DNA from: Minisyncoccota bacterium
GTDB taxonomy: Bacteria > Patescibacteriota > Minisyncoccia > Phycocordibacterales > UBA9973
Length of the DNA stretch: 59,924 nucleotides
Direction: 5' to 3'
Assembly: GCA_017991395.1 (NCBI GenBank)
Contig: JAGOQQ010000002.1
Span: forward strand, 1-59,924
The position numbers were made by a program, and so were the translations under genes. Shown here piece by piece: positions 9,384-28,049 of this stretch; within the stretch, counting starts at the first letter, position 1; each line of letters starts with the position of its first letter. The notes below the pieces were generated by a model, which did no database searches, was not told where the DNA came from, and saw only the letters and a program-made list of their open reading frames with translations.

Positions 9384-10667
9384 ATGTACAAAAAACATCA
9401 AGAGTCATTTTGGGATAGATTTCACACCGCTATTAAAGTCGGTTCTTTTTTGGCATACCGGGATATTAAGAATGCAAACAAATGGACAACTGCACTTATT
9501 GTATTTGTGATGACACTCACATTTCTCAACCTTATTGTGATTAGCGGAATTCTTGTAGGACTTATTCAAGGATCAGTTGAATCAAATAAAAAGCGATATT
9601 CAGGAGACATAATTATTTCACCACTTCTGACAAAAGAATATGTTGAAAATAGTCAGGAGATTATTTCAATCACAAAAACAATTCCGGGGTATCTTTTGCA
9701 TACATATAGATATGCTCAATCAGGTCGTGTCGAAAGTAATTACAAAGAAACACTTCTTCCAGATGAAAAAATAAATTCTGTGGGTGGCATTGTTGCGGGA
9801 ATTAACCCAGTACTTGAAGACAAAGTCACGGGTCTTTCGGAAGTGTTGATTGAAGGAACATATTTGATGCCGGGAGATACAGACAAAATTCTTATTGGTG
9901 CTGATCTTTTGTACAAATATACTCCAATTGAGTCACCAAGTTTTTCAACATTAAAAAATATTGAAGTTGGGTCACGAGTACGACTGACTGTTGGTTCGAA
10001 TGTAAAAGAGTATTACGTGAAGGGAATAATCAAATCAAAGGCAGGTGATGTGGATCAGCGCATTTTCATGATTGATAGTGAACTTAGAAAACTTGCCGGC
10101 AGAAATGATTTGAATGTTGATGAAATCGCGATTGTACTTAAAGACGATGCGTATATTTCTGTTGCAAAAGATGCACTTGTGCGAAGTGGTGTAGAAAAAT
10201 ATGCGCGCGTGCAAACTGCAGAAGATGCAGAACCAAAATTTCTCCAAGACATCAAGGCGACATTTTCGATTCTCGGAAATGTTATTGGTTCGATTGGACT
10301 TGCGGTGGCGTCAATCACCATTTTTATTGTGATATTCGTAAACGCAATTACGCGAAGACGTTTTATTGGAATCTTGAAGGGAATTGGAATCGATTCACGA
10401 GCGATTATATTCTCATATATTTTGCAATCACTTTTTTATGCACTTCTCGGAGTACTTATCGGTACAATTATAATTTTTGGTTTTCTCAAGCCGTACTTTG
10501 ATGCAAATCCAATCAATTTCCCGTTTTCGGATGGAATTCTGGTCGCGACACCTGTGGGGACATTTATACGCGCGATGATTTTGCTCGTTGCAACACTTAT
10601 CGCAGGATTTATTCCGGCGCGAATCGTGATACGACAAAATACTCTTGATGCAATTTTGGGAAGATAA
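9384..10667 (+). CDS. ABC transporter permease, FtsX/MacB-like
   Basis: 427 aa. N-terminal TM, large extracytoplasmic domain, then a C-terminal 3-TM FtsX-type bundle. Confidence 0.85.
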   Translation: MYKKHQESFWDRFHTAIKVGSFLAYRDIKNANKWTTALIVFVMTLTFLNLIVISGILVGLIQGSVESNKKRYSGDIIISPLLTKEYVENSQEIISITKTIPGYLLHTYRYAQSGRVESNYKETLLPDEKINSVGGIVAGINPVLEDKVTGLSEVLIEGTYLMPGDTDKILIGADLLYKYTPIESPSFSTLKNIEVGSRVRLTVGSNVKEYYVKGIIKSKAGDVDQRIFMIDSELRKLAGRNDLNVDEIAIVLKDDAYISVAKDALVRSGVEKYARVQTAEDAEPKFLQDIKATFSILGNVIGSIGLAVASITIFIVIFVNAITRRRFIGILKGIGIDSRAIIFSYILQSLFYALLGVLIGTIIIFGFLKPYFDANPINFPFSDGILVATPVGTFIRAMILLVATLIAGFIPARIVIRQNTLDAILGR

Positions 10668-10672
10668 ACTAT

Positions 10673-11353
10673 ATGATTAACGCAAAAAACATTGTTAAAA
10701 AATTTAAAAGTGGATCAGGTGAAATCACTGCGCTTGCGGGGATTGATTTTGCCGTCGCCGAAGGAGAGTTTGTGTCAATCACTGGACGTTCTGGTTCGGG
10801 CAAATCGACATTGCTCTATCAGCTTTCACTTCTTGATCATCCAACCGATGGCGAGATAGTCATTGATGGCGTGGAGGTCATGGGCTTATCAAGCGAAGAC
10901 AGAACTGAGTTTCGTCTTCATGAGCTCGGATATGTGTTTCAAGATTATGCAATTTTGCCGGCACTGACCGCAAAAGAAAATGTGATGCTCCCGCTTTTGA
11001 TGCAAGGTAAATCAAGTCAGTATTCAAAAGAAAAAGCGGAGATTGCGTTGATCAAAGTTGGTCTTGGTGACCGAATGGAAAATTATCCTTCACAACTCTC
11101 GGGTGGTCAGCAACAGCGTGTCGCTATTGCTCGTGCTATTGCTCATTCGCCAAAGATAATTTTCGCCGACGAACCTACTGCAAACCTCGATAGTGAGACG
11201 TCCCAAACAGTGCTCGATACATTTTTGGACTTACACAAGGAAGGGCAGACAATCGTCATGGTGACTCACGAGTCTGAGTATGCTGCACTTACCGACAGGA
11301 CAATTGTGTTGTCAGACGGAAAAATAATTAAAGACGAGAGAAATAAAAAATAA
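10673..11353 (+). CDS. ABC transporter ATP-binding protein (MacB/LolD-like)
   Basis: Walker A GRSGSGKST, signature LSGGQQQRVAIARA, Walker B IIFADEPT, and H-loop VTHE. Confidence 0.95.
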   Translation: MINAKNIVKKFKSGSGEITALAGIDFAVAEGEFVSITGRSGSGKSTLLYQLSLLDHPTDGEIVIDGVEVMGLSSEDRTEFRLHELGYVFQDYAILPALTAKENVMLPLLMQGKSSQYSKEKAEIALIKVGLGDRMENYPSQLSGGQQQRVAIARAIAHSPKIIFADEPTANLDSETSQTVLDTFLDLHKEGQTIVMVTHESEYAALTDRTIVLSDGKIIKDERNKK

Positions 11354-11527: not shown

Positions 11528-12085
11528 ATGTGGTACGATATAAGCATGGCAGCCAAAAAAACTACACTTAAAGGTATCATTTTTGTCCTTGTGCTCATCG
11601 TACTTGCGATGGGATATAGTATGTATACCACATCGAGCAAAAACTCAAAAGAGACTTATACGCGAGTAGATTCTGTTGAAGAAAATACGACACCTGCATC
11701 TCCTGATACTGACACTACACCAAACCCACCTCAAAAAATGGAGGAAGCGTTTATTGAAGAGGAAACTACACCTGTGGTCGCCGAAGACTCATGCGAAAAG
11801 GATTTGATTGCAAAACTCAAGGCCGACAAAACTGAATACGAAAAAGGAAGAATACTTGTAGGTTTCAAGCAGGGAATCTCGTTTTCGGGCGCGCAATCAA
11901 TACTCAAAAAATACGATCTCGTACCAGTACTTGCCGGTGTGGACGAAGATTCATACAATTCGATGCGACTGCTCACCGTCAATGTGCCAACCGGACGTGA
12001 ACCATATTTTGTGTGTTACTTGAAAAGTAATTCTTCGATTCGATACACAAACGTCAACGTGCTACTTTTCACAAAGCCAATCTAG
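11528..12085 (+). CDS. Hypothetical membrane-anchored protein
   Basis: 185-aa ORF. TM segment IIFVLVLIVLAMG, then a Thr/Pro/Glu-rich linker and a ~90-aa globular C-terminus. An alternative ATG lies at 11546. Confidence 0.6.
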   Translation: MWYDISMAAKKTTLKGIIFVLVLIVLAMGYSMYTTSSKNSKETYTRVDSVEENTTPASPDTDTTPNPPQKMEEAFIEEETTPVVAEDSCEKDLIAKLKADKTEYEKGRILVGFKQGISFSGAQSILKKYDLVPVLAGVDEDSYNSMRLLTVNVPTGREPYFVCYLKSNSSIRYTNVNVLLFTKPI

Positions 12086-14529: not shown

Positions 14530-14677
14530 GGTGTCACTATATCATTTTTAAAATAAATAATTCAATTTGAATATCAACTCCGCATGTCATCTGCGTTATT
14601 TTTTGCAATTTATCCGCTTGCCCAATCCCCACTATTTCTTTTGATACTTTTGATTAATTTCGTACAATAATAGTGTA

Positions 14678-17600
14678 ATGCAATTACTTAAAAAATATTT
14701 GAAAATGAAACTGGTAGGATCACTGCTCGCGCTTTTTGTGGTTACTTGTATATTTCATTTTGGAATACTTTTAGCAGCTTACAGTTCTTCAGATGTGATT
14801 GGACAGACTGACGGAAGTGGAGGAGCTGATTATGTGGGAGGAACAAGAAATGATGGAATTGTTACTAATTCAAATTTCGGAATGGTGAATCCGGGAGGTG
14901 TTGCATTTGATCCAACAGGGCAAAAAATATTTATTGTTGATAGTGCCACACATCGTATTTTGGTGTTTAATACAGACGTTGGAGGTAACCCTCTTGATCA
15001 CTATGCCGATGCAGTTCTAGGACAGCAGGATTTTTATGGATTCGCCAGTGGTACTACTGCAGCAACTCTCAATACACCTGAAGATGTTGAATTTGACTCT
15101 GTGAGAAATTATTTGTATGTATCTGATTCCGGCAACAATCGTGTACTTGTATTTGATGTGGCTACAGTTACTACGGGTGAATCAGCTGTTAAGGTGCTCG
15201 GGCAGCCAGATTTGGTTAGTAATGATTTTAATACCACTGCTGACGGAATGGGAAATCCAAACGGTATAGATTTTTTTAATTCAACTACTGACTCATTGTT
15301 TGTGGCTGATTATGATAATAGTCGAGTTCTCATGTACTCACTTGGAACAGATGCGAGCGGTGTCACTACGGGTGAGTCAGCAACTCGAGTGTTAGGGCAA
15401 GCTGATCTAATATCATCTACTGGAACACTGACAGCTACGGGACTATATGCACCTGCCGATGTGGTGGCGTTCAATGATACAGAAAAAAATTACCTAGTAG
15501 TTGCTGATAGTGGTAATAATCGCGTTGTTGTGTACGATATTGACTCAGTCTCAAATGGTGAAGCCGGAATCCTCTTTCTAGGTCAAGAAGATGCTACGAG
15601 TTTTAATATTGATTGTGCGTTTGGTGCCAGTTCGTTTTGTATTCCTGTGTCAGTGGATATTCAAATAAAAGGCCCAACATACACACTGTGGGTGTCTGAT
15701 TCTAATCACTATAGAGTTGTTGGTTTTACGGTCAAGCCCATGCCAGAAGGACTTGAGATTGAGCGCGTGTTTGGACACACAGATATTACAGGAGAAACAC
15801 CAGGAAACACTTATTTTACAAGCACTCCTACCTATTTAAATTATTTTACCCTTACGGACTCTCTTTTTGTAAGTGGTGACAACGATCATCGTGTTGTGGT
15901 TTTTGATGCGAGTTCTGCGTGGAGTGGGGTATCTGCTGAGGATGTATTTGGACAAATCACTGATGGGAATGTTGATCTCGAAACAGTTGAAAATTATTTT
16001 CCATTTAATAATCAAATTTCAAGTACAGGTTTAGACATTATTGGTAATTCTTCACATACATATGTCGACACCGTCAATCACAAAATGTATGTTTCGGATT
16101 CGGCCAACAATCGCGTATTGGTATATAATCTTTCAAGTTCAAATATTCCACTAGACAGGACTGCAGACAATGTTCTTGGGCAGTGTGATTTTAATTCAAA
16201 TGCACCATCTGATACGGGAGCACAATACTTTGATCGCCCAACAGGTCTTGCAATGTACGACTCAGGAGCTACGCAAATGTTGTTTGTTTCGGATACTGGC
16301 AACAACCGTATTTTAGTGTTTAATGTCACATCCATTACCGATTGTGAGTCCGCAGTAAATGTGCTCGGTCAAATAAATTTCACATCAAGCACACCAAGAC
16401 TTGATGATATGGGATTTACTAGTCCAGAAGGATTGGATGTAGCAATTAAAGGTTCAGAAGTATATTTGTTTGTCTCAGACACTGGAAGCAATCGCGTGCT
16501 TGCATACAATGTTAAAACCGTCACTGATGGAGAAACTGCTGTTGCCGTAATTGGACAACCTGATTTTGTTACGAGTTCAGCTGGTACAACCATACAAAAA
16601 CTAAACTCACCAAGTGATGTCGACGCATATCTTGATTCTGAAAGCATGCTCTCACTTGTAGTGTCTGACACAGGAAATAGTCGAGTGCTTAAATATGACT
16701 TTCCGGGAGGATCCCCTGTGACAAATGAAATTGCTCGTAATGTTCTCGGGCAAACAAACTTTACAACTGGTGCACCACTAAGTACGCCGAGTGTGACAAG
16801 CTCAAATTTTGGCCAATCTGGCCCAGGAGGACTTGAGCTCAATACCAACAATAGTATTTTGTATGTTGCTGATCCAGAACAAAACAGAGTGTTGGGTTTT
16901 GATATTTCTACTCTAACTGATGGTGAGGCAGCAGTGTCAGTATTTGGTCAGGACGCATTTACTACTTCGACTGCTAGTACAACAATTAGTACGTTTGACT
17001 CACCTGTGGGTGTGTCAGTAGATACAACAAACAACAAACTTTATGTAACAGATAGTAACAATAACCGTGTTCTTATATATAGCTTGCCGTTTGTAACAAA
17101 TGTTTCAATGGCGAGAGTGGTCTGGGCAAATACCACTGCAACATACCAGGGTACACTCTCAGCAGTATTTGGTACAGGTGTATATCCTCCTGGATATAAA
17201 GAGTCATCAACTGTTCCGCAATTTTCTGGATTTGTTACATTGAATGGTTCATATTCAATAGTCACACAAGTACTCGACACGCTCGGAGGTGTTGCAGGAA
17301 ATTTTTATGCAAACAAACTCACACTTTCAAGTTCAATTTCTACTCCAACGGAAATCGCATCAGTAGGACAAACGGCTGCATTTACATCGCGGGTAGATTT
17401 TGGAGGATACACTGGAGCCACAAACTCTGTTGCAATCGGATACCCAGAAGCGATTGAGCTTGATACTACCAATAATCGTTTGTTTGTTGCTGATACATAC
17501 AACAATCGCATTATGGTGTTTAATCTTAATTCTGGAACTGGAAAAATAGATAATTACACACCTGATTATTATTTGGGTCAGTCAAATTCTTCAAATACTT

Positions 17601-20600
17601 CTGCCGCAACAACACAAGCTGGTTTGGATCGCCCGACAGCCATGGTGTTTGATTCGGGAACAAATCTTCTTTATGTTGCAGATTCTGGAAATCATCGTGT
17701 CGTTGTCTACAACACTGCATCACTTGCAACAGGAATGAGTGCGTCTTATGTGCTTGGACAAGCTACGTATACCGCAAGTGCTGTTGCAACAACACAATCA
17801 GGAATGAGATTCCCACAAGGGCTCGAGCTTGATACAGTAGGAGATAAATTGTTTGTATCCGATACTGGAAACAACCGTGTACTTGTATATGATGTTGCGT
17901 CAATCACAAATGGTGAGAATGCTCAAAATGTATTAGGACAAGCGTCGTTTGTTGCTCGAGTGTACGCAATCGCTGATTCAAACGATATGGCTTCGCCAAC
18001 AGAGCTTGAATTTGATCAAACCAATAAATTGCTCTATGTGTTGAACGAAGTGAATTCGGGAAATTCGGGACGAATTCTTCGATACGATACAAACTCAATT
18101 TCAGATAATGAAAACGCAACTCAACTAATCAGTGATGATTCAAATCTATATGGAATTCACGGATTGGGTCTTGATACAGATACAGAGACACTATATTTTT
18201 CAGTAAACGATCCACTAAGTGGTGCAAGCGGGCAAGATGTCGTGCACACGCTTGACCTTGCGTCTCTCACTGGTTCAGCTGAAGAAATAACACCAATTTC
18301 TCTTATTGGGGATACCATTGTTTCGATTATGGATGGCGATGTTGATGACAGAACATCGAGTCGTATGTTTGAACCTCGTGATATGGTAGTCAATTCAAAC
18401 ACGCGAGAATTGTATGTACTTGATTCTGGAAACAAACGTGTAATGGTGTTTGACCTTGTCGATCTGACGACAGCATCATTTTCAGCAGGAACAGAAGGGG
18501 TCGCATATTCTCAAAACCTTGCATCAACAAACAATCAAAACAACTTAGTATATCGTGGAGAAAATGTCGCTTTTGCTGCGTCTGATGCAACACAAGATTC
18601 TGATTTACCGCCAGGACTCACTCTTTCATCTGCCGGAGTATTGTCTGGAACACCAACAACAGCTGGAACATATACATTTACTGTTCGTGCATATGATACA
18701 AGTGGATCACTCGTTGCTGGTAATGTGTGGCCACTTTTGTGGGATAAAGAAACATATTCATTGACCATCAACGCAGATGCAGGACCAGATGCAGAGTGTA
18801 GTGATGGCATGGACAACGATGGAAATGGTCTCATTGACTACCCAGCAGATACTGGATGTGATAATGCAAATGATGACAGCGAAACAACCACCACAGGTGG
18901 AGGATCACCATCTGCATGTAATGATGATCTCGACAACGACGGAGATGGACTTGTGGATTTTCCCGCAGACACGAATTGCGAAAATATAAATGATGACAGT
19001 GAAGCACCAGAATGTAGTGACAGTGAAGACAACGACGGAGATGGACTTGTGGACATGTCGGATTCTGGATGTGCAAACGCAAATGACGACGATGAGGAGA
19101 ACAATGAAGCACCAGAGTGTAGTGATGGCATGGACAACGATGGTGATGAATTCACCGATTTCGGAGCAGATGATGGATGTACAAATGCCGATGATGATTC
19201 AGAATTTAGTATTGTGGTCACTCAATGTAATGACGGTATCAACAATAATGATGGTGATATATTCATTGATTACCCCGACGATATAGGGTGTGAAAATCTA
19301 AGTGATAATGACGAAAGAGATTATGCATGTAGTGATGGTAAGGACAACGACAATGATGGGCTCATTGATTATGGATTTGATCTTGGATGTTACGGACCAA
19401 CTGATCCAAGTGAGACAAACGTAATCATCGTCACGCCACCTGATGATCCTGAACCACCCGATGATCCAGTAGATGATGGTGGAGGCGGGGGAGGTATTGA
19501 TACAGAAGAGCCAGGGGACGAGGAGCCACCAGTTGATGTCGAACCGCCAGTAGAAGACGAAGAACCAGAGGATGACCCAGTTGTGTTGTCTGAAGGTGGT
19601 GGGTGTTTTAGAGAAATCACTACAATCACACCGCTTGGTGAAGTAATTGTAATTCAAGTGGAAGGAACTCTTTGTGAAGTAGAGAATATTATCGATGAGA
19701 CCACACGATATATCCAAAGTGTACTAAACAATCCATCCGGTAATTTCTTGGCGAAAATTATTGCAGTTGTGGGTCTAGTAATGGGTGCAATATTCACCGC
19801 TGTACCATACTTGTTCCTCACGCCGTTCTCGTTCTCAGAAGTTGCACTTCTTCCATATAGACTCTGGTCAATCTTGATGAGTATATTTGGACTCAAAAAA
19901 CAGGTACGTCCATGGGGTACGGTGTATGACTCAATCACGAAACAGCCTCTTGATCCTGCAATTGTAGAACTTCTTGATTTGGAAGGTAGACCAGTGGCGA
20001 CATCAACCACAGACATTGATGGAAGATATGGATTCCTCGTTGGTCCAGGTAAGTATCGCTTGCTTCCAAAAAAATCTCATTACGCGTTCCCATCACTTAA
20101 GTTGATTGGTAAAACACGAGATGAGTTGTATCTAGATTTGTATTTCGGATATGTATTTGAAATCACAAAAGAAGGAGAAGTGATTACAAAAAACATTCCT
20201 ATGGACCCTGAAAATTTTGACTGGAATGAGTTTGCAAAAAATGATCAAAAGAAAATGAGATTTTTCTCAAAGAGAGATTTCATTATTAGTCAGATTGCCG
20301 ACTTCTTGTTCTCAGTAGGATTCGTTGTTGCAGTAATCGCAATTATTTCTGCGCCAACAATCTACAACATTATTATTTTCTTGCTCTATGTAATCACTCT
20401 TATCTTGAAAGAGATGGGATTGAAGAGCTCATCGTTTGGAAGTGTCAAAGATGCTGATGGAAATCCACTTTCATTTGCCATCTTGAGAGTGAAGCTCACA
20501 GATGGAACAGAAATTTCACACAAGGTTACCAATGCGACAGGACGATTTTATTGTCTGATGCAAAATGGAACATATGTTGTGTCGATTGAGAGAAAAAATC

Positions 20601-20683
20601 CAGATGAATCATATACGAAGGTGTATGAAAATGTGCATCAAATCAAGAATGGAGTGCTGAACGGAAAAATAATAGTTAAATAA
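14678..20683 (+). CDS. Giant (2001 aa) multi-domain surface protein: signal anchor, ~17 NHL repeats, Ig-like module, six Cys-flanked DNDGDG repeats, acidic Pro-rich linker, TM segments interleaved with CarboxypepD_reg-like domains
   Basis: Recurrent SD(S/T)GNNRVLV(F/Y)D blades followed by GE(S/A)A..VLGQ.[33 protein letters not shown] is Ig-like. [22 protein letters not shown]-type units occur six times. [17 protein letters not shown] and [16 protein letters not shown] are CarboxypepD_reg-like. Confidence 0.9.
   Translation: [2001 protein letters not shown]
18786..19410 (+). repeat. Six tandem ~30-38-aa C-x-D-x2-DNDGDG-x2-D-x5-GC repeats inside the giant CDS
   Basis: 27-30-nt identical DNA stretches are shared between non-adjacent units: tgtagtgatggcatggacaacgatgg at ~18793 and ~19120, and gacaacgacggagatggacttgtgga at ~18934 and ~19030. 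Confidence 0.85.
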
Positions 20684-20710
20684 AATACGCCTCACTCGAG
20701 GCGTATTTTA
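20682..20710 (+). terminator. Intrinsic terminator after the giant gene
   Basis: aaaatacgcctc-actc-gaggcgtatttt. Confidence 0.8.
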
Positions 20711-20772
20711 TTCTCAAAAATCACTTTTTAAGGTATAGTTACTATGTTATTCGCTAATTATATTTATTTAAT

Positions 20773-21288
20773 ATGAAAACATGGTCATCTGTGCTTATTG
20801 TTATTATTGTTGGAGCGCTTGGATATTTTGTAGTCACACAGGCTCCTCAAAAGGAAAATACTACCACAACAGAAAACACAGAAGAAATGAATCAAGAGAG
20901 TGCGCAAAATGAACAATCAGATAATTCACAAGAAACAACTATGAATACACAACAAAACCTCGGCATTGAAATTACAAAAGAAGGAAGCGGGGAACCAATC
21001 AAGACTGGTCAGACTGCCGTCATGAATTATACAGGACGTCTTGAAGACGGAACGGCGTTTGATTCAAACGTTGATCCAAAATTTAATCATGTAGAACCTT
21101 TCGAATTTGTACTTGGTCAAAATCGAGTTATTCAAGGTTGGGAGCAGGGTGTGCTCGGTATGAAAATGGGAGAAAAAAGAGTACTCACTATTCCAGCAAC
21201 ACTAGGGTATGGTGCAAGTGGTATCCCAGGTGTTATCCCAGGTGGTGCAACACTCGTATTTGATATTGAGCTCGTTTCAATTAAGTAA
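20773..21288 (+). CDS. FKBP-type peptidyl-prolyl cis-trans isomerase with N-terminal membrane anchor
   Basis: YTGRLEDGTAFDS...FEFVLGQNRVIQGWEQGVLGMKMGEKRVLTIP..LGYG...IPGGATLVFDIELV is the canonical FKBP domain. Confidence 0.95.
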   Translation: MKTWSSVLIVIIVGALGYFVVTQAPQKENTTTTENTEEMNQESAQNEQSDNSQETTMNTQQNLGIEITKEGSGEPIKTGQTAVMNYTGRLEDGTAFDSNVDPKFNHVEPFEFVLGQNRVIQGWEQGVLGMKMGEKRVLTIPATLGYGASGIPGVIPGGATLVFDIELVSIK

Positions 21289-21290
21289 TT

Positions 21291-22808
21291 ATGATACAAA
21301 GTTTTTCTGAAAAAATCAGAGCATTTATACAAACACTTTTCTCTCGTAAGCGATACTGGATGAGTGTACTTTTGGTACTCATCATTGTTTTTATCGTTGT
21401 CAAAAATGGAAATTCTCGCAATGAAATTGTTGTAGAGAAAGTTGGTTATGGAGAACTCAAAAAGACTGTCGTCGCCACAGGTGAGGTGACAAGTGAGACA
21501 AATTTGGGTTTGAGCTTTGATCAAAACGGGGAAGTCAAAGATATTCGAGTGAAAGTTGGCGACAAAGTTACAAAAGGACAAATTCTTGCCACAATTGATC
21601 AGCGAGAAGAACAAGCAGAACTCACGCAGGCACGTGGGGCACTTCTCGTCGCACAAGCAAATTACAAAAAGGCATTTCGCACCCTTGAATCAGCAGAAGG
21701 CACCCTTGAAAATGTGGTGGCGCAGCAAGAAGTGTTGGTCAAAAACGCAGAGCGGAATCTTCTTTCGGATGAACTTGAGGCGGTACCAGAATCAGTCGAC
21801 AATGGATCATCTCTTCCACCTGTAATTTCAGGTGTATACAACTCAACTATTCAAGGAGACTATGTTATTACCATGTATGCATCAAATGCAAATTCAGGAT
21901 ACTCATTCAAACTCTCTGGTCTTGAAAAAGGTTCTGGTACAGTGAGTACTACATCGTCAGTCTCGCTCGGGACTCGAGGGTTGTATATCAAATGGCCCAC
22001 AGGATTTGAAGGAAGTGAGACATGGGTAGTATCAATTCCCAATAAAAGAAGTAGTACATACGCGACAAATCTAAATGCATACAATCTGGCACTCGAAACA
22101 AAGAAAACAGAAATCGAAAATGCAGAGCGAGCAATTGTTGAGAAAAAAGCAGAATTTTCAGTTGAAAATATTGAGAGTGAAATTGCATACGCCGAAGTGG
22201 TGAGTGCACAAGGAAAAGTTGAGTCAGCACTTGCAAAAGTAGAGGACAAGATTTTGCGTGCACCTGTGGACGGCACTATTACCGCAGTTGAAATCAAGAT
22301 TGGTGAAGTGGCAAAAGCAGATACTGATGTCATGGTGTTGCAGGATATTTCAAATCTTTATTTCGAAGGTCTTGTAAATGAAGAAAATATTTCTTTGATC
22401 AAAGAAGGACAAAACGCCGATGTGGTATTTGATGCATTCGGTGATTCAAAAGTCGTGAACGCAAAAGTAAAAGAGGTGAATCTTTCTTCAACAAGAGATT
22501 CTGACGTAGTGAATTATCAAATCACTGCATCGTTTGATGACGCAACAGAAATTAAAACTGGGATGACCGCGACCGCGACTATTTTGATTGATAAAAAAGA
22601 AAGCACATTGTCTGTCCCTGTCCGTGCTGTCTACGAAGAGAACGGTGTATCATTTGTATATGTCGTTACAAATCTTGATAAGAAAAAGTATGAACGACGT
22701 GATGTGTCAATCGGATTTTTGGCAGATGGAGCTCTCAGGGAAGTTATTTCTGGATTGTCAGTTTCCGACTCAGTTGTCACTTCGCTTGTAGAGCCAGAAT
22801 CAAAATAA
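21291..22808 (+). CDS. HlyD/MacA-like efflux periplasmic adaptor subunit
   Basis: TM anchor and lipoyl-like motif GEVKDIRVKVGDKVTKGQILATID. Long coiled-coil segment, second lipoyl half LRAPVDGTITAV, then a beta-barrel C-terminus. An extra ~100-aa segment is inserted in the coiled coil. Confidence 0.85.
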   Translation: MIQSFSEKIRAFIQTLFSRKRYWMSVLLVLIIVFIVVKNGNSRNEIVVEKVGYGELKKTVVATGEVTSETNLGLSFDQNGEVKDIRVKVGDKVTKGQILATIDQREEQAELTQARGALLVAQANYKKAFRTLESAEGTLENVVAQQEVLVKNAERNLLSDELEAVPESVDNGSSLPPVISGVYNSTIQGDYVITMYASNANSGYSFKLSGLEKGSGTVSTTSSVSLGTRGLYIKWPTGFEGSETWVVSIPNKRSSTYATNLNAYNLALETKKTEIENAERAIVEKKAEFSVENIESEIAYAEVVSAQGKVESALAKVEDKILRAPVDGTITAVEIKIGEVAKADTDVMVLQDISNLYFEGLVNEENISLIKEGQNADVVFDAFGDSKVVNAKVKEVNLSSTRDSDVVNYQITASFDDATEIKTGMTATATILIDKKESTLSVPVRAVYEENGVSFVYVVTNLDKKKYERRDVSIGFLADGALREVISGLSVSDSVVTSLVEPESK

Positions 22809-22869
22809 GAGTGTCACATTCACTTTGTGGATGCGTTAGATAGGTAGTTATTAGAATAATCAATATACT

Positions 22870-23664
22870 ATGGATTTACAAAACCCACTTATTAAAAAAA
22901 TCGGTAACGCACTACTCGGACTAATCGGGGTACTTACTGTAATGTTTGCGATTCAAATTATTTCAGATGTCCGTGGAAATAATGAGTTAGAACAAAGCAC
23001 AATTTCTGTCACAGGAGAGGGCGAGGTGTTCGCAGTCCCTGATACAGCTGAAATAAGTTTCTCAGTTCGAAATGATGCAAAAGTTCTTGCGGATGCTCAA
23101 AAAGTTGTAAGCGATAAAGTTGCTCAAACACTTAAACTTTTGAAGGATCTTGGAATTGAAGAAAAAAATATAAAAACACAATCTTATACATCATACCCAA
23201 AGTATGACTACGGTAATACTGAAGTGGTATGTATGGCGATTGGGTGTCCAACACCTCGACCAGGTACTCCGGTGATTGTGGGGTATGAAGTGTCACAAAT
23301 GATTACTGTAAAAATTACTGATACCGAAAACGTGAGTTCTGTATTGGAAGGTCTTGCAAAGATTGGTGTATCAGACATGAATGGTCCAAATTTCACAATC
23401 GGTGATGAAGATGGATTAAATGCACAGGCACGAAAATTGGCAATCGATGATGCAAAAGAAAAAGCAAAAGTGCTTGCAAAGGATCTCGATGTGAGACTTG
23501 TTGAAATAGTATCATTTAGTGAAGATGGTTCAACTCCATATCCAATGTACTACTCAAAGGCAGGGATGGCGGGTGATGCGGTTGCAGAATCTTCTGCACC
23601 AGAGCTCCCACGTGGTGAAAACAAACTTACTTCACGTGTGACAATCACATATAAGATTCGTTAA
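22870..23664 (+). CDS. SIMPL (DUF541) domain protein
   Basis: ISVTGEGEVFAVPDTAEISFSV ... ARKLAIDDAKEKAKVLAKDL ... ITYKI matches SIMPL family hallmarks. Confidence 0.85.
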   Translation: MDLQNPLIKKIGNALLGLIGVLTVMFAIQIISDVRGNNELEQSTISVTGEGEVFAVPDTAEISFSVRNDAKVLADAQKVVSDKVAQTLKLLKDLGIEEKNIKTQSYTSYPKYDYGNTEVVCMAIGCPTPRPGTPVIVGYEVSQMITVKITDTENVSSVLEGLAKIGVSDMNGPNFTIGDEDGLNAQARKLAIDDAKEKAKVLAKDLDVRLVEIVSFSEDGSTPYPMYYSKAGMAGDAVAESSAPELPRGENKLTSRVTITYKIR

Positions 23665-23667
23665 CTT

Positions 23668-23712
23668 AGCGCGGAACTACGCGGAATTAACGCGGAAAGA
23701 TTTCGCGGAATT
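23668..23712 (+). repeat. Array of four (A)CGCGGAA words with 10-14 bp period, starting directly after a stop codon
   Basis: agcgcggaact acgcggaatta acgcggaaagattt cgcggaatt. Confidence 0.85.
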
Positions 23713-23730
23713 GTTTGAGAATATTTGTAA

Positions 23731-23775
23731 AAATACCATAAGAGCGGCGCCGTAGGCGCCGCTCATTTGGTATTT
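23731..23775 (+). terminator. Long hairpin terminator
   Basis: aaataccataagagcggcgcc-gta-ggcgccgctcatttggtattt. Confidence 0.75.
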
Positions 23776-26693: not shown

Positions 26694-28049
26694 TTATGAT
26701 TCCTTTTTTACAATATCTTGTGTGCCACGTCGCAGACTCCATTCATCTTCTGAGTAGTCGCAATGAAGACTATATTTTTCACCAAGGGCTTGTGCAAGAT
26801 GATGTTCAATGTTTCGTCCCATTTGTTTCGCCACTATTCTCAGGGTTGGATGAACTGTTTGTTTTGTGCGTAATTCGCATGCATATATTGCAGCTGATAT
26901 CGGACCACGAACTTCACATGGGGTTCTGTATCCCATAGGAATATAATATTGACGATCTTCATTTGAACATTCAAGATTGTTGACTCTAGTTTCCATTTCA
27001 GAAATAAATCTTTCAGCATATTTTCTAGTTTCAGTGTCTCTAATTTGATTAAGATACCATTTTTCAAATCCAAAATTTGTGCTTAGTAACGGCATTGCAG
27101 TAGTCACCGCACGCTGTCTTTGCCAGTCCCTAAATGATCCAAAGTCTAGAAGAAATTTGAATGTTACATCACCACACAATCTTGCCTGTTTAGGAAGCTC
27201 TGAATTTTCAGGTCTCAGTAGAAACAATGATTTGTATTTTTTGATAAAATCAGTATCTATTGATATTGTCGCAGAAAGCTCATCATGCCCGTCATTGAAA
27301 AGCATGTCATCATTGAATGATACAATGGGTATTACTTTTTCCAAATACTCTTCATCTTTATCATACCGTTTGTGTCCAAAGCTACTCGGATACTTTTCTT
27401 TGAGCGTCGCGGTAATTTTTTCTGCAACTTCCCGAATTTCTCTAAGTGGATGATAACGCATTTCTTTTAAATGATCTGCTGCTTGGCGAAGATTTGTGTG
27501 CCAACTCACATATGTCGTCACACCCGCTGGTAGGAATCCACGTGCAATATCAAAAGCTTTTGCTTTGATTGTTTTGTTGTAGATTTTCTCATCCTCAGAA
27601 TCGTATCTTGGATATTCTTCAGGTAGTTGTCGGATTAGGGTTTCAAGTAAGTCACTATAAAATTTCATTTGATCAACAAGGATATTCTTTCCCTCGTCTG
27701 TGTCCAATATATTTATCACGGGCTGTGCTCCCATGTCTAAATATCGCGTGCTTGCTTCTTGCCCTGAATACAGTGGCCAATCCTGGATTGCTTTTGCGGT
27801 GAACATACTTACGTTTTCAACGCATAGAGTAATCGTGCCGCAATCACCGATTGACTTATGTCCATACCCAACATAGTAACTTGACATAAACTTCTCAGCT
27901 CCGCCTTCTTTAATGTTCTGTATATGTATTAGTACAGAGCGCGGATCTCTTGAATAGAGTGCTTGTAGCATCGCTACCACCTCAGGTGAAAAATCATCTA
28001 AGCAGATGATTTCCATAGGCGAATTCGGAATAATTGATTTCTTGTTCAT
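26694..28049 (-). CDS. Tandem-duplicated (pseudo-dimeric) ThyX-like flavin-dependent thymidylate synthase homolog
   Basis: The first half has GHKSIGDCG...QDWPLYSGQEASTRY, where the S..QE.S.RY part is kept but RHR is replaced by QDW. The second half has FGSFRDWQRQR, an RHR-like RQR. 451 aa, about twice the canonical ThyX length. Confidence 0.75.
   Translation of the reverse strand: MNKKSIIPNSPMEIICLDDFSPEVVAMLQALYSRDPRSVLIHIQNIKEGGAEKFMSSYYVGYGHKSIGDCGTITLCVENVSMFTAKAIQDWPLYSGQEASTRYLDMGAQPVINILDTDEGKNILVDQMKFYSDLLETLIRQLPEEYPRYDSEDEKIYNKTIKAKAFDIARGFLPAGVTTYVSWHTNLRQAADHLKEMRYHPLREIREVAEKITATLKEKYPSSFGHKRYDKDEEYLEKVIPIVSFNDDMLFNDGHDELSATISIDTDFIKKYKSLFLLRPENSELPKQARLCGDVTFKFLLDFGSFRDWQRQRAVTTAMPLLSTNFGFEKWYLNQIRDTETRKYAERFISEMETRVNNLECSNEDRQYYIPMGYRTPCEVRGPISAAIYACELRTKQTVHPTLRIVAKQMGRNIEHHLAQALGEKYSLHCDYSEDEWSLRRGTQDIVKKES

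Follow-up and report, generated by a model that had tools for sequence, protein, structure and literature searches.

A 2001-residue NHL-propeller protein of a Patescibacteria genome: a candidate surface adhesin on a conserved C-terminal membrane module

The stretch of DNA described here, called the window throughout, comprises positions 1 to 59,924 of the forward strand of contig JAGOQQ010000002.1 (GenBank assembly GCA_017991395.1) of a Minisyncoccota bacterium and has a G+C content of approximately 39%. A preliminary description of the same DNA had singled out one open reading frame (ORF) filling 10% of the window and had assigned it to a small-genome organism. Both statements hold: the ORF runs from 14678 to 20683 on the + strand, starts with ATG, encodes 2001 amino acids (aa) plus a stop codon, and takes up 6006 of 59924 nt (10.0%), and the labels of its relatives place the organism in the Patescibacteria. 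The opposite strand carries no competing long ORF, the longest overlapping one having 160 aa. The encoded protein—herein the product of the giant gene—is a member of the NHL, He_PIG, acid_disulf_rpt, and CarboxypepD_reg families, all above their curated cut-offs, and an exact-sequence look-up returned no existing record of it.

The protein begins with a basic stretch and a 23-residue hydrophobic segment (aa 1-37; 14678..14788, + strand, as for all parts of the gene given below), which has a Kyte-Doolittle peak of 2.55. Residues 2-28 form a helix in the AlphaFold2 model, and the sequence (I/L)FAA(F/Y)S is conserved in orthologues. This segment would be either a Sec signal peptide, with possible cleavage between LLA and A, or an uncleaved signal anchor. 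It is followed by NHL β-propeller 1 with blades 1-6 (aa 38-440; 14789..15997), propeller 2 with blades 7-12 (aa 441-806; 15998..17095) and, after an insert (aa 807-915; 17096..17422), propeller 3 with blades 13-18 (aa 916-1262; 17423..18463), as delimited by a blade hidden Markov model (HMM), AlphaFold2, and Foldseek. The Pfam search for NHL (PF01436) proposed in the preliminary description reports eight stretches and reaches 165.9 bits (cut-off 20, E 3.8e-50). Seventeen NHL units are found by a blade HMM derived from the protein itself; a degenerate 18th blade, at approximately aa 1160-1193, emerges from the AlphaFold2 secondary structure.

Two AlphaFold2 models were made, one of aa 1-801 and one of aa 802-2001, and their Foldseek matches are dominated by propellers. 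The first model has a mean predicted local distance difference test (pLDDT) score of 85.8 and shows twelve four-stranded blades within aa 72-800, interrupted by a low-confidence break at 425-460. Its best matches are tandem double propellers, namely UTP proteins, LRP4/LRP6, and EML1. The second model contains six blades within aa 923-1259, with pLDDT mostly >90 in blades 13-15 and lower values in the degenerate blades 16-17. Propeller 3 matches the NHL domains of SOQ1 (7djj, template-modelling score 0.67) and Mei-P26 (7nyq, 0.75), PAL (3fvz, 0.68), and NHLRC2 (6g7w, 0.63), and also a propeller-plus-PKD fragment of a Methanosarcina S-layer protein (1l0q, E 3.7e-15). The earlier estimate of about 17 NHL blades, or about three six-bladed propellers, is hence upheld by the HMM units and by both structural methods, and the models would favour a count of 18 blades (3 x 6). 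The region inserted between propellers 2 and 3 is modelled with pLDDT <50 up to aa 902, displays the pattern YPPGY...SG...GSYS...D, and matches no family in a Pfam scan. Aligned with the He_PIG block by hhalign, it reaches a probability of 40% (E 2.9e-4) and is possibly a degenerate He_PIG-like immunoglobulin (Ig) domain.

Between the blades, the preliminary description had noted the motif V(T/S)xGE(S/A)AxxVLGQxDF and regarded it as specific to the lineage. The motif as such is present: its relaxed form occurs eight times in the protein, its [LIVF]GQ core is found in 13 blades by our own reading of the blade alignment, and it is the consensus across forty Patescibacteria homologues. The form ...NGE(N/S)A..VLGQ.DF... 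is also seen, however, in NHL proteins labelled Pseudomonadota (P0118) and Bacteroidota (P0119) and in one unnamed record (P0063), so the supposed lineage specificity does not stand. Judged from these alignments, the motif reads as the second half of a long (~60-residue) bacterial NHL blade and not as a lineage marker.

The propellers are followed by a He_PIG (dystroglycan/cadherin-like) Ig domain (aa 1263-1367; 18464..18778). A whole-protein Pfam scan missed this domain and a segment rescan recovered it; on aa 1265-1400 alone, PF05345 reaches 47.1 bits (cut-off 24, E 3.3e-12), and AlphaFold2 predicts a β-sandwich with pLDDT ~90. Next come six acidic repeats, each holding a single cysteine pair (aa 1368-1602; 18779..19483), delimited by NF033662 and a repeat alignment. 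They follow the pattern C-x-D-x-x-DNDGDGLxD-x3-D-x2-C, and their six cysteine pairs (12 cysteines, 1374/1394 to 1551/1571) are spaced 19-21 residues. The NCBIfam model acid_disulf_rpt (NF033662, acidic double-disulfide repeat, ~32 aa) matches five stretches with 59.7 bits against a cut-off of 41; a Pfam scan of the repeats gave no match. Among solved structures, phmmer finds the C-rich domain of Teneurin-4 (7PLP, E 0.005), which binds three calcium ions on these acidic positions, two of the sites belonging to the thrombospondin type-3 class (PMC9058538). D-N-D-G-D-G-L-x-D-x3-D, the DxDxDGxxDxxD ligand pattern, is retained in all six repeats, with minor substitutions in repeats 1, 4, 5, and 6. 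With two cysteines per repeat, the 1-3, 2-5, 4-6 six-cysteine pattern of teneurin is absent. The assignment of a thrombospondin-type-3 or teneurin C-rich calcium motif to the repeats is thus well founded, and calcium binding is putative. Both the dystroglycan/cadherin-like module and the six calcium-binding-like repeats of the preliminary description are hence recovered. A Gly/Pro/Glu/Asp-rich acidic linker or stalk, delimited by composition (aa 1603-1640; 19484..19597), comes next; it has low pLDDT and is 22-47% identical among orthologues.

The remainder of the protein (aa 1641-2001) is herein called the tail and includes a module of ~330 residues, in which two pairs of hydrophobic helices are each followed by a sandwich domain. 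It starts with a cysteine pair (1643/1666) and a long helix running toward the membrane (aa 1653-1684), together encoded by 19598..19738. The first helix pair, TM1 (aa 1688-1712) and TM2 (aa 1720-1738), is encoded by 19739..19894 and the second, TM3 and TM4 (aa 1864-1914), by 20267..20419, both as judged from hydrophobicity and AlphaFold2. TM1 is strongly hydrophobic; TM2 is weak, contains invariant Glu, Pro, Arg, and Trp residues, and is followed by a KKxxR stretch. In between lies the first CarboxypepD_reg (transthyretin-like) sandwich with a conserved extension (aa 1740-1863; 19895..20266; Pfam and AlphaFold2). The second such sandwich (aa 1915-2001; 20420..20680; best PF13620 stretch 1921-1974, pLDDT 85-93) forms the extreme C terminus, so that the protein ends with ...NGKIIVK inside a folded sandwich. 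AlphaFold2 places the two sandwiches at aa 1761-1831 and 1921-1999.

Only these two sandwiches are recognized by Pfam within the tail. The search for CarboxypepD_reg suggested earlier gives PF13620 in two stretches with 55.3 bits against a cut-off of 32.3; the SdrD B-type family (PF17210) matches weakly (E 7.5e-6). A tail profile compared with PDB sequences likewise yields weak sandwich matches, the nearest being SdrD (10ps, E 8.7e-4) and carboxypeptidase M, both extracellular. No Pfam or NCBIfam model spans the whole module, the best NCBIfam match being a NikL-type model over 28 residues (E 0.019). Invariant within the tail are a 17-residue motif, TDxDGRYGF, and NIPxDPxxFDWNEF, and the signature of the family alignments (RPWGxVYD..TK.P.DP, TD.DGR.GF, and NIP.DP..(F)DWNE) is present in the window protein. 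The preliminary description had spoken of an unusual anchor. The two CarboxypepD_reg hits with their hydrophobic helix pairs agree with this, yet the wording understates a region that is the most distinctive and conserved part of the protein.

The tail is found far beyond the giant gene. A search confined to the tail returned 455 proteins, mostly Patescibacteria proteins of ~600 aa that are annotated as "hypothetical" or "carboxypeptidase regulatory-like domain-containing protein" and are 45-58% identical over ~330 residues. An exhaustive HMMER scan of 1.84 billion cluster representatives (50% identity) at E<=1e-30 detects the module in at least 860 protein clusters. Among the best 150 of these, the proteins are 382-3040 aa long, and in all but a few the module reaches the C terminus or stops a few residues short of it. 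It is encoded in 454 stretches (one genome per species), of which the best 80 were used for taxonomy, gene neighborhood, and copy counts. These 80 are essentially all from Patescibacteria, with labels including Paceibacterota, Nomurabacteria, Parcubacteria, Taylorbacteria, Minisyncoccia, and "uncultured Ca. Saccharibacteria"; the Gammaproteobacteria label of a single 1.6-kb contig probably reflects mis-binning. Two copies come from each of at least seven genomes, and in the closest relatives of the window, NHL+tail paralogues of at least two kinds are present (L004/L007 and L005/L006, L numbers denoting loci). NHL repeats lie upstream of the module in 8/80 loci. In 32 long members, the ectodomains comprise NHL, Sortilin/BNR, fn3, FG-GAP, VWA, RCC1, DUF5122 propellers, and Big_5, all of which are, by family assignment, of binding or adhesion types.

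In ~39/80 loci, a short form of ~600 aa lies directly upstream of rpsL-rpsG-fusA (e.g., L055 8111-12082; also L019 and L029), and it thus behaves like a core gene. A gene for an M50 (site-2 type) membrane protease is found near the tail-module gene in 44/80 loci, and L28 and a ComEC-like gene also occur nearby. A conserved dedicated partner gene was not found beside tail-module genes in this set, where the synteny is limited to such housekeeping genes (M50 protease, L28, ComEC-like, rpsL-rpsG-fusA). The ectodomain of the short form (N-terminal 150-250 aa in P0126, P0163, P0134, and P0218) contains G(Y/W)AWxENxGWINF repeats; this domain has no match in Pfam and is apparently unnamed. No paper was found that describes the tail module, or Patescibacteria, Parcubacteria, or the candidate phyla radiation together with NHL, CarboxypepD_reg, or the acidic double-disulfide repeat, within a literature coverage that is incomplete. 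Apparently, the tail is therefore an undescribed C-terminal membrane module that is essentially restricted to Patescibacteria, and it would serve as a reusable base for varied binding ectodomains across the phylum.

The order of modules in the window protein was taken by the preliminary description to be an undescribed combination, and it had proposed a comparison of length and repeat number among relatives. This comparison shows that the combination is not unique. Four orthologues have the full architecture: P0001 (1935 aa), P0004 (1950 aa), P0242 (1915 aa), and P0241 (1766 aa). The first three cover 99-100% of the window protein with the same module order, and P0241 appears to be without part of the N-terminal region. 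Two further proteins (P0024 and P0027) show a shorter architecture of 1384-1386 aa. Relatives hence range from 1384 to 1950 aa and have 3-5 acidic repeats (5, 4, 5, 4, and 3) as compared with six in the window protein; the length of the inter-propeller insert varies too. Global identity to the window protein is ~45-50% for P0001 and P0004.

This identity is distributed very unevenly along the protein. In L001, the closest locus with a full-length orthologue (P0001), the neighboring genes are 72-95% identical to those of the window and the giant protein overall 50%. Within the protein, the propellers reach 40-42%, the He_PIG domain 45%, and the acidic repeats 57%, as opposed to 88% for TM1-TM2, 95% for the first sandwich, and 79% for the second sandwich. 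The first sandwich is still 88% identical in the more distant locus of P0004 (L002). Thus, the outer part of the protein evolves much faster than the surrounding genome, and the tail more slowly.

A long and repetitive gene raises the question of whether a collapsed or chimeric repeat region has produced a false long ORF. The giant gene clearly poses difficulties for short-read assembly: three independent short-read metagenome-assembled genomes (MAGs) of close relatives (L084, L004, and L005) break inside it. The contig of L084 (JAUPUX010000063.1, GCA_030917345.1) begins inside the acidic-repeat region, at window position 19041, and contig ends cut the gene in L004 (at position 1) and in L005 (at the end). 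Public genomes of the lineage thus under-report the gene; a fragment of 489 aa that is 99% identical to the window protein (P0121) is annotated as such in a public MAG of a "Patescibacteria group bacterium." For the copy in the window, collapse or chimerism is nevertheless unlikely. The internal repeats are only 60-82% identical in DNA over <=88 nt, and Tandem Repeats Finder reports no meaningful tandem array in the gene, so that the repeats are old and diverged at the DNA level and short-read collapse is unlikely. From 19041 to 23773, the L084 contig is colinear with the window without gaps at 97.7% DNA identity. In addition, three full-length orthologues from separate sequencing runs—public ones in the case of P0001 and P0004—cover the protein over 99-100% and keep its order of domains. 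Neither the tail nor the NHL region occurs a second time within the window. An assembly artefact as the origin of the ORF is accordingly extremely improbable.

Taken together, the gene product is read as an adhesin-like protein that is anchored in the membrane and exposed on the surface of a Patescibacteria (Paceibacteria-type) cell, with a probability of roughly 0.6. From sequence and models, the N-terminal Sec-type hydrophobic segment is predicted to export an ectodomain of ~1600 residues, at whose distal end the three six-bladed NHL propellers would offer large binding faces. The modules after the propellers, namely the He_PIG domain, the six calcium-type disulfide repeats, and the acidic Pro-rich linker, may form a calcium-stiffened stalk that projects the propellers off the cell, and the 330-residue C-terminal module is predicted to hold the protein in the cytoplasmic membrane. 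The propellers may bind a host-cell or substrate ligand and be under pressure to diversify. The tail, as the reusable base on which the phylum would mount many binding ectodomains, may dock to a conserved component in the envelope or cytoplasm of the bacterium itself. It is the divergence pattern, together with the reuse of the tail under many adhesion-type ectodomains, that argues for an adhesin. Very large surface-targeted proteins with adhesion domains have been proposed as host-recognition candidates in Patescibacteria (PMC13059738). From this agreement with the literature on large surface proteins of the phylum, we infer a role in attachment as a reasonable reading.

Some observations weigh against this interpretation. 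The fast divergence of the ectodomain could also stem from relaxed constraint, or from phage- or immune-type pressure on a structural coat. The acidic repeats, which would stiffen the stalk, are modelled at low confidence by AlphaFold2, as is the insert at aa 807-915. Lastly, both sandwiches could, judged from the sequence features of their flanks, be cytoplasmic, which would make the protein receptor-like rather than passively anchored.

A structural surface-coat subunit—S-layer-like, tiling the cell, anchored by the tail, and serving envelope architecture or protection—would account for several of these features. The Methanosarcina surface-layer fragment 1l0q is among the best Foldseek matches and shares the order of a propeller followed by an Ig-like domain. 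Archaeal S-layer proteins are typically C-terminally membrane-anchored, and such anchoring together with fast divergence, as well as a giant gene with its own promoter-like site and terminator, suits a coat protein. No SLH or other recognized S-layer anchoring domain was found by Pfam, however, on which account membership in the SLH-type S-layer proteins was rejected. Moreover, two or more distinct NHL+tail paralogues are present in the closest relatives, and the tail bears many unrelated ectodomains, which fits a repertoire of binders better than a single lattice protein. A coat is therefore an unlikely function. An enzymatic role of the propellers, with lactonase-, arylesterase-, or PAL-like catalysis by a secreted or surface protein, is less probable by far. 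Pfam does report Arylesterase (60.3 bits), SGL (49.5 bits), and Lactonase above their cut-offs, and PAL (3fvz) is a structural match. The profile matches are partial, though (positions 41-81 of 86, 133-212 of 246, and 291-333 of 344), and cover one or two blades, which indicates generic blade similarity and not a full catalytic domain. The NCBIfam lactonase and YncE equivalogs reach 16-27 bits against cut-offs of 370-500, and three tandem propellers with ~40% identity among orthologues are unlike a conserved active site. Hence, the assignment to the SGL, arylesterase, or lactonase enzymes was rejected as well.

The third competing reading concerns the tail and turns the protein into a transmembrane receptor or transducer: the propellers would sense a ligand, and both sandwiches would lie in the cytoplasm and pass on a signal or a mechanical link to an internal partner. 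In the corresponding membrane path, TM1 would span the membrane, TM2 would be interfacial, and TM3 and TM4 would form a hairpin. Across 87 family members, the net charge is strongly positive, with +3.9 after TM2, +3.0 before TM3, and +1.7 after TM4, and the two short inter-helix loops are essentially uncharged, which puts the sandwich flanks on the positive, i.e., inner side. TM2 has a summed Hessa free energy of +6.3 and a Kyte-Doolittle value of 1.31, in addition to its invariant Glu and Arg. By the positive-inside rule, the basic flanks and the weak TM2 suggest that the sandwiches could be cytoplasmic and that TM2 does not span the membrane. Identity of 88-95% in the first sandwich, compared with ~40% in the ectodomain, is furthermore the pattern of a constrained internal face, and the short tail-family member beside rpsL-rpsG-fusA is core-gene-like. 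On the other hand, domains of the CarboxypepD_reg/SdrD_B sandwich fold are almost always extracytoplasmic, as are the nearest solved relatives, SdrD and carboxypeptidase M, and AlphaFold2 models TM1 and TM2 as helices of 24 and 21 residues that are compatible with a hairpin. A signalling domain and a conserved partner gene were not found. The simplest membrane path would be two helical hairpins with both sandwiches outside. A receptor is thus improbable overall. A broader scenario is held only tentatively, namely that a Patescibacteria-wide tail originated as a core gene by the str operon, was reused as a base for surface proteins, has cytoplasmic sandwiches, and thereby makes the NHL protein a host-sensing receptor.

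The adhesin-like protein can be compared with several known systems. P0001, P0004, P0241, and P0242, as well as the shorter P0024 and P0027, share the order of signal, NHL propellers, He_PIG, acidic repeats, linker, and tail. These multi-NHL relatives in Patescibacteria vary in repeat number and insert length, are unstudied, and are named only "hypothetical." The ~600-aa proteins (e.g., P0126 of Ca. Nomurabacteria, P0163, and P0235) share the 330-aa tail at 45-58% identity together with its invariant motifs, and differ by a small ectodomain of 150-250 aa, composed of G(Y/W)AWxENxGWINF or short cysteine repeats, that lacks propellers.

With the ectodomain core of teneurins, the window protein has three domain types in common: six-bladed NHL propellers, transthyretin-like sandwiches, and the acidic DNDGDGLVD calcium motif. 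It has, however, no YD shell, RHS repeats, FN-plug, toxin domain, or EGF repeats and arranges its domains in another order, with two cysteines per repeat as opposed to six and with sandwiches interleaved with membrane helices. Membership in the teneurin or YD (RHS) toxin family was rejected, as there was no RHS, YD-shell, or toxin match at E<=1 for the whole protein or at E<=10 for segments; such families do occur in some distant NHL homologues (P0051, P0072, and P0081). The Methanosarcina protein 1l0q resembles the window protein as a surface β-propeller followed by an Ig-like domain, but is archaeal, has a seven-bladed YVTN propeller with 12% identity, and is devoid of calcium repeats and of a comparable tail. 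Gram-positive adhesins built from a stalk and a tip, such as SdrD of the MSCRAMM type, offer a similar layout of a distal binding region, a calcium-dependent rigid repeat stalk, and a C-terminal anchor. They differ by their LPXTG signal and DEv-IgG folds, in place of which the window protein has an integral membrane module and propellers. Sortase anchoring was rejected, as an LPXTG-like motif is absent anywhere in the protein. The family, which is sizeable, and chiefly its tail appear to be undescribed, within a phylum in which large adhesin-like surface proteins are already known.

The giant gene looks monocistronic, with a promoter-like site of its own and a terminator-like hairpin. The site TTGATA-16-TACAAT (14641..14668, + strand) has 10/12 consensus matches, is a consensus match only, shares the best score among + strand sites, and ends 10 nt 5' of the ATG. 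No Shine-Dalgarno-like sequence is present ahead of the ATG (14641-14677), which, together with the position of the promoter-like site, suggests a leaderless or near-leaderless mRNA; an alternative start at Met10 (14705) is possible. At the other end, a stem-loop lies over the stop codon (20678..20713, + strand) and consists of a 16-pair stem with a G+C core, the loop ACTC, and a subsequent TTTTATT. It is palindromic, its - strand was flagged by the terminator search, and it looks like an intrinsic terminator, in line with which the gene appears to be transcribed alone.

Upstream of the giant gene, the window contains a metallophosphoesterase gene on the opposite strand. Downstream, it is followed by genes for a membrane-anchored FKBP prolyl isomerase, a YknX/HlyD-type adaptor, SIMPL, SecE, NusG, and L11. 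The order Metallophos, giant gene, FKBP, membrane-fusion protein, SIMPL, SecE, and NusG is kept in L001, L002, L004, L005, and L084, and synteny is conserved for three of the four full-architecture orthologues. In the more distant L009 and L012, the NHL+tail gene lies one gene further upstream in the same neighborhood. No sign was seen that these neighbors are functionally tied to the giant gene. The product of the FKBP gene (20773-21288) is probably extracytoplasmic, given its membrane helix at the N terminus and a low-complexity acidic linker. In all orthologous loci seen (L001, L002, L004, L005, and L084), this gene comes after the giant gene; by position only, its product is a plausible folding helper for the giant protein.

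An FtsX-type permease and an ABC ATPase, forming a MacB-like pair (9384-11353), are separated from the gene of the YknX/HlyD-type membrane-fusion protein (21291-22808) by ~10 kb, with the giant gene in between. The same split arrangement is seen in L001, and the pair and the YknX/HlyD-type protein may form one efflux or export system despite this separation. A 185-aa ORF at 11528-12085 has no significant family and weak SpoIIIAH-like (E 0.004) and fervidolysin-prodomain-like matches; at its position, L001 has a 161-aa ORF without a recorded family. Further downstream, a ThyX gene on the - strand (26694-28049) encodes 451 aa, with the Thy1 domain at residues 24-222 and ~230 C-terminal residues without a family. 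Its counterpart in L001 (19491-21071) encodes 526 aa. The more distant L002 has ThyA and a DUF1599 gene in its place (15884-17496), so that the type of thymidylate synthase has been exchanged although the locus is the same.

Patescibacteria account for a large part of bacterial diversity, and those in culture live attached to other microbes. To our knowledge, host recognition and attachment in this phylum have been explained only through type IV pili, and this in a few Saccharibacteria. The giant protein offers a concrete attachment candidate in Paceibacteria-type lineages, namely a fast-diverging array of three propellers on a calcium-type stalk. Taken at face value, it adds a further large adhesin-like protein to a phylum in which such proteins are already known. 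Its tail module, present in at least 860 clusters with many ectodomain types, marks a surface-protein repertoire of the phylum. The module thus provides a search handle for cataloguing surface proteins, a target for localization studies, and a test case for how very large proteins are anchored without an LPXTG-type signal. Should the receptor reading be true, a fast-evolving external binding array would be coupled to a near-invariant internal domain, and with cytoplasmic sandwiches, the tail would connect the surface of ultra-small episymbiotic bacteria to their interior in a novel way.

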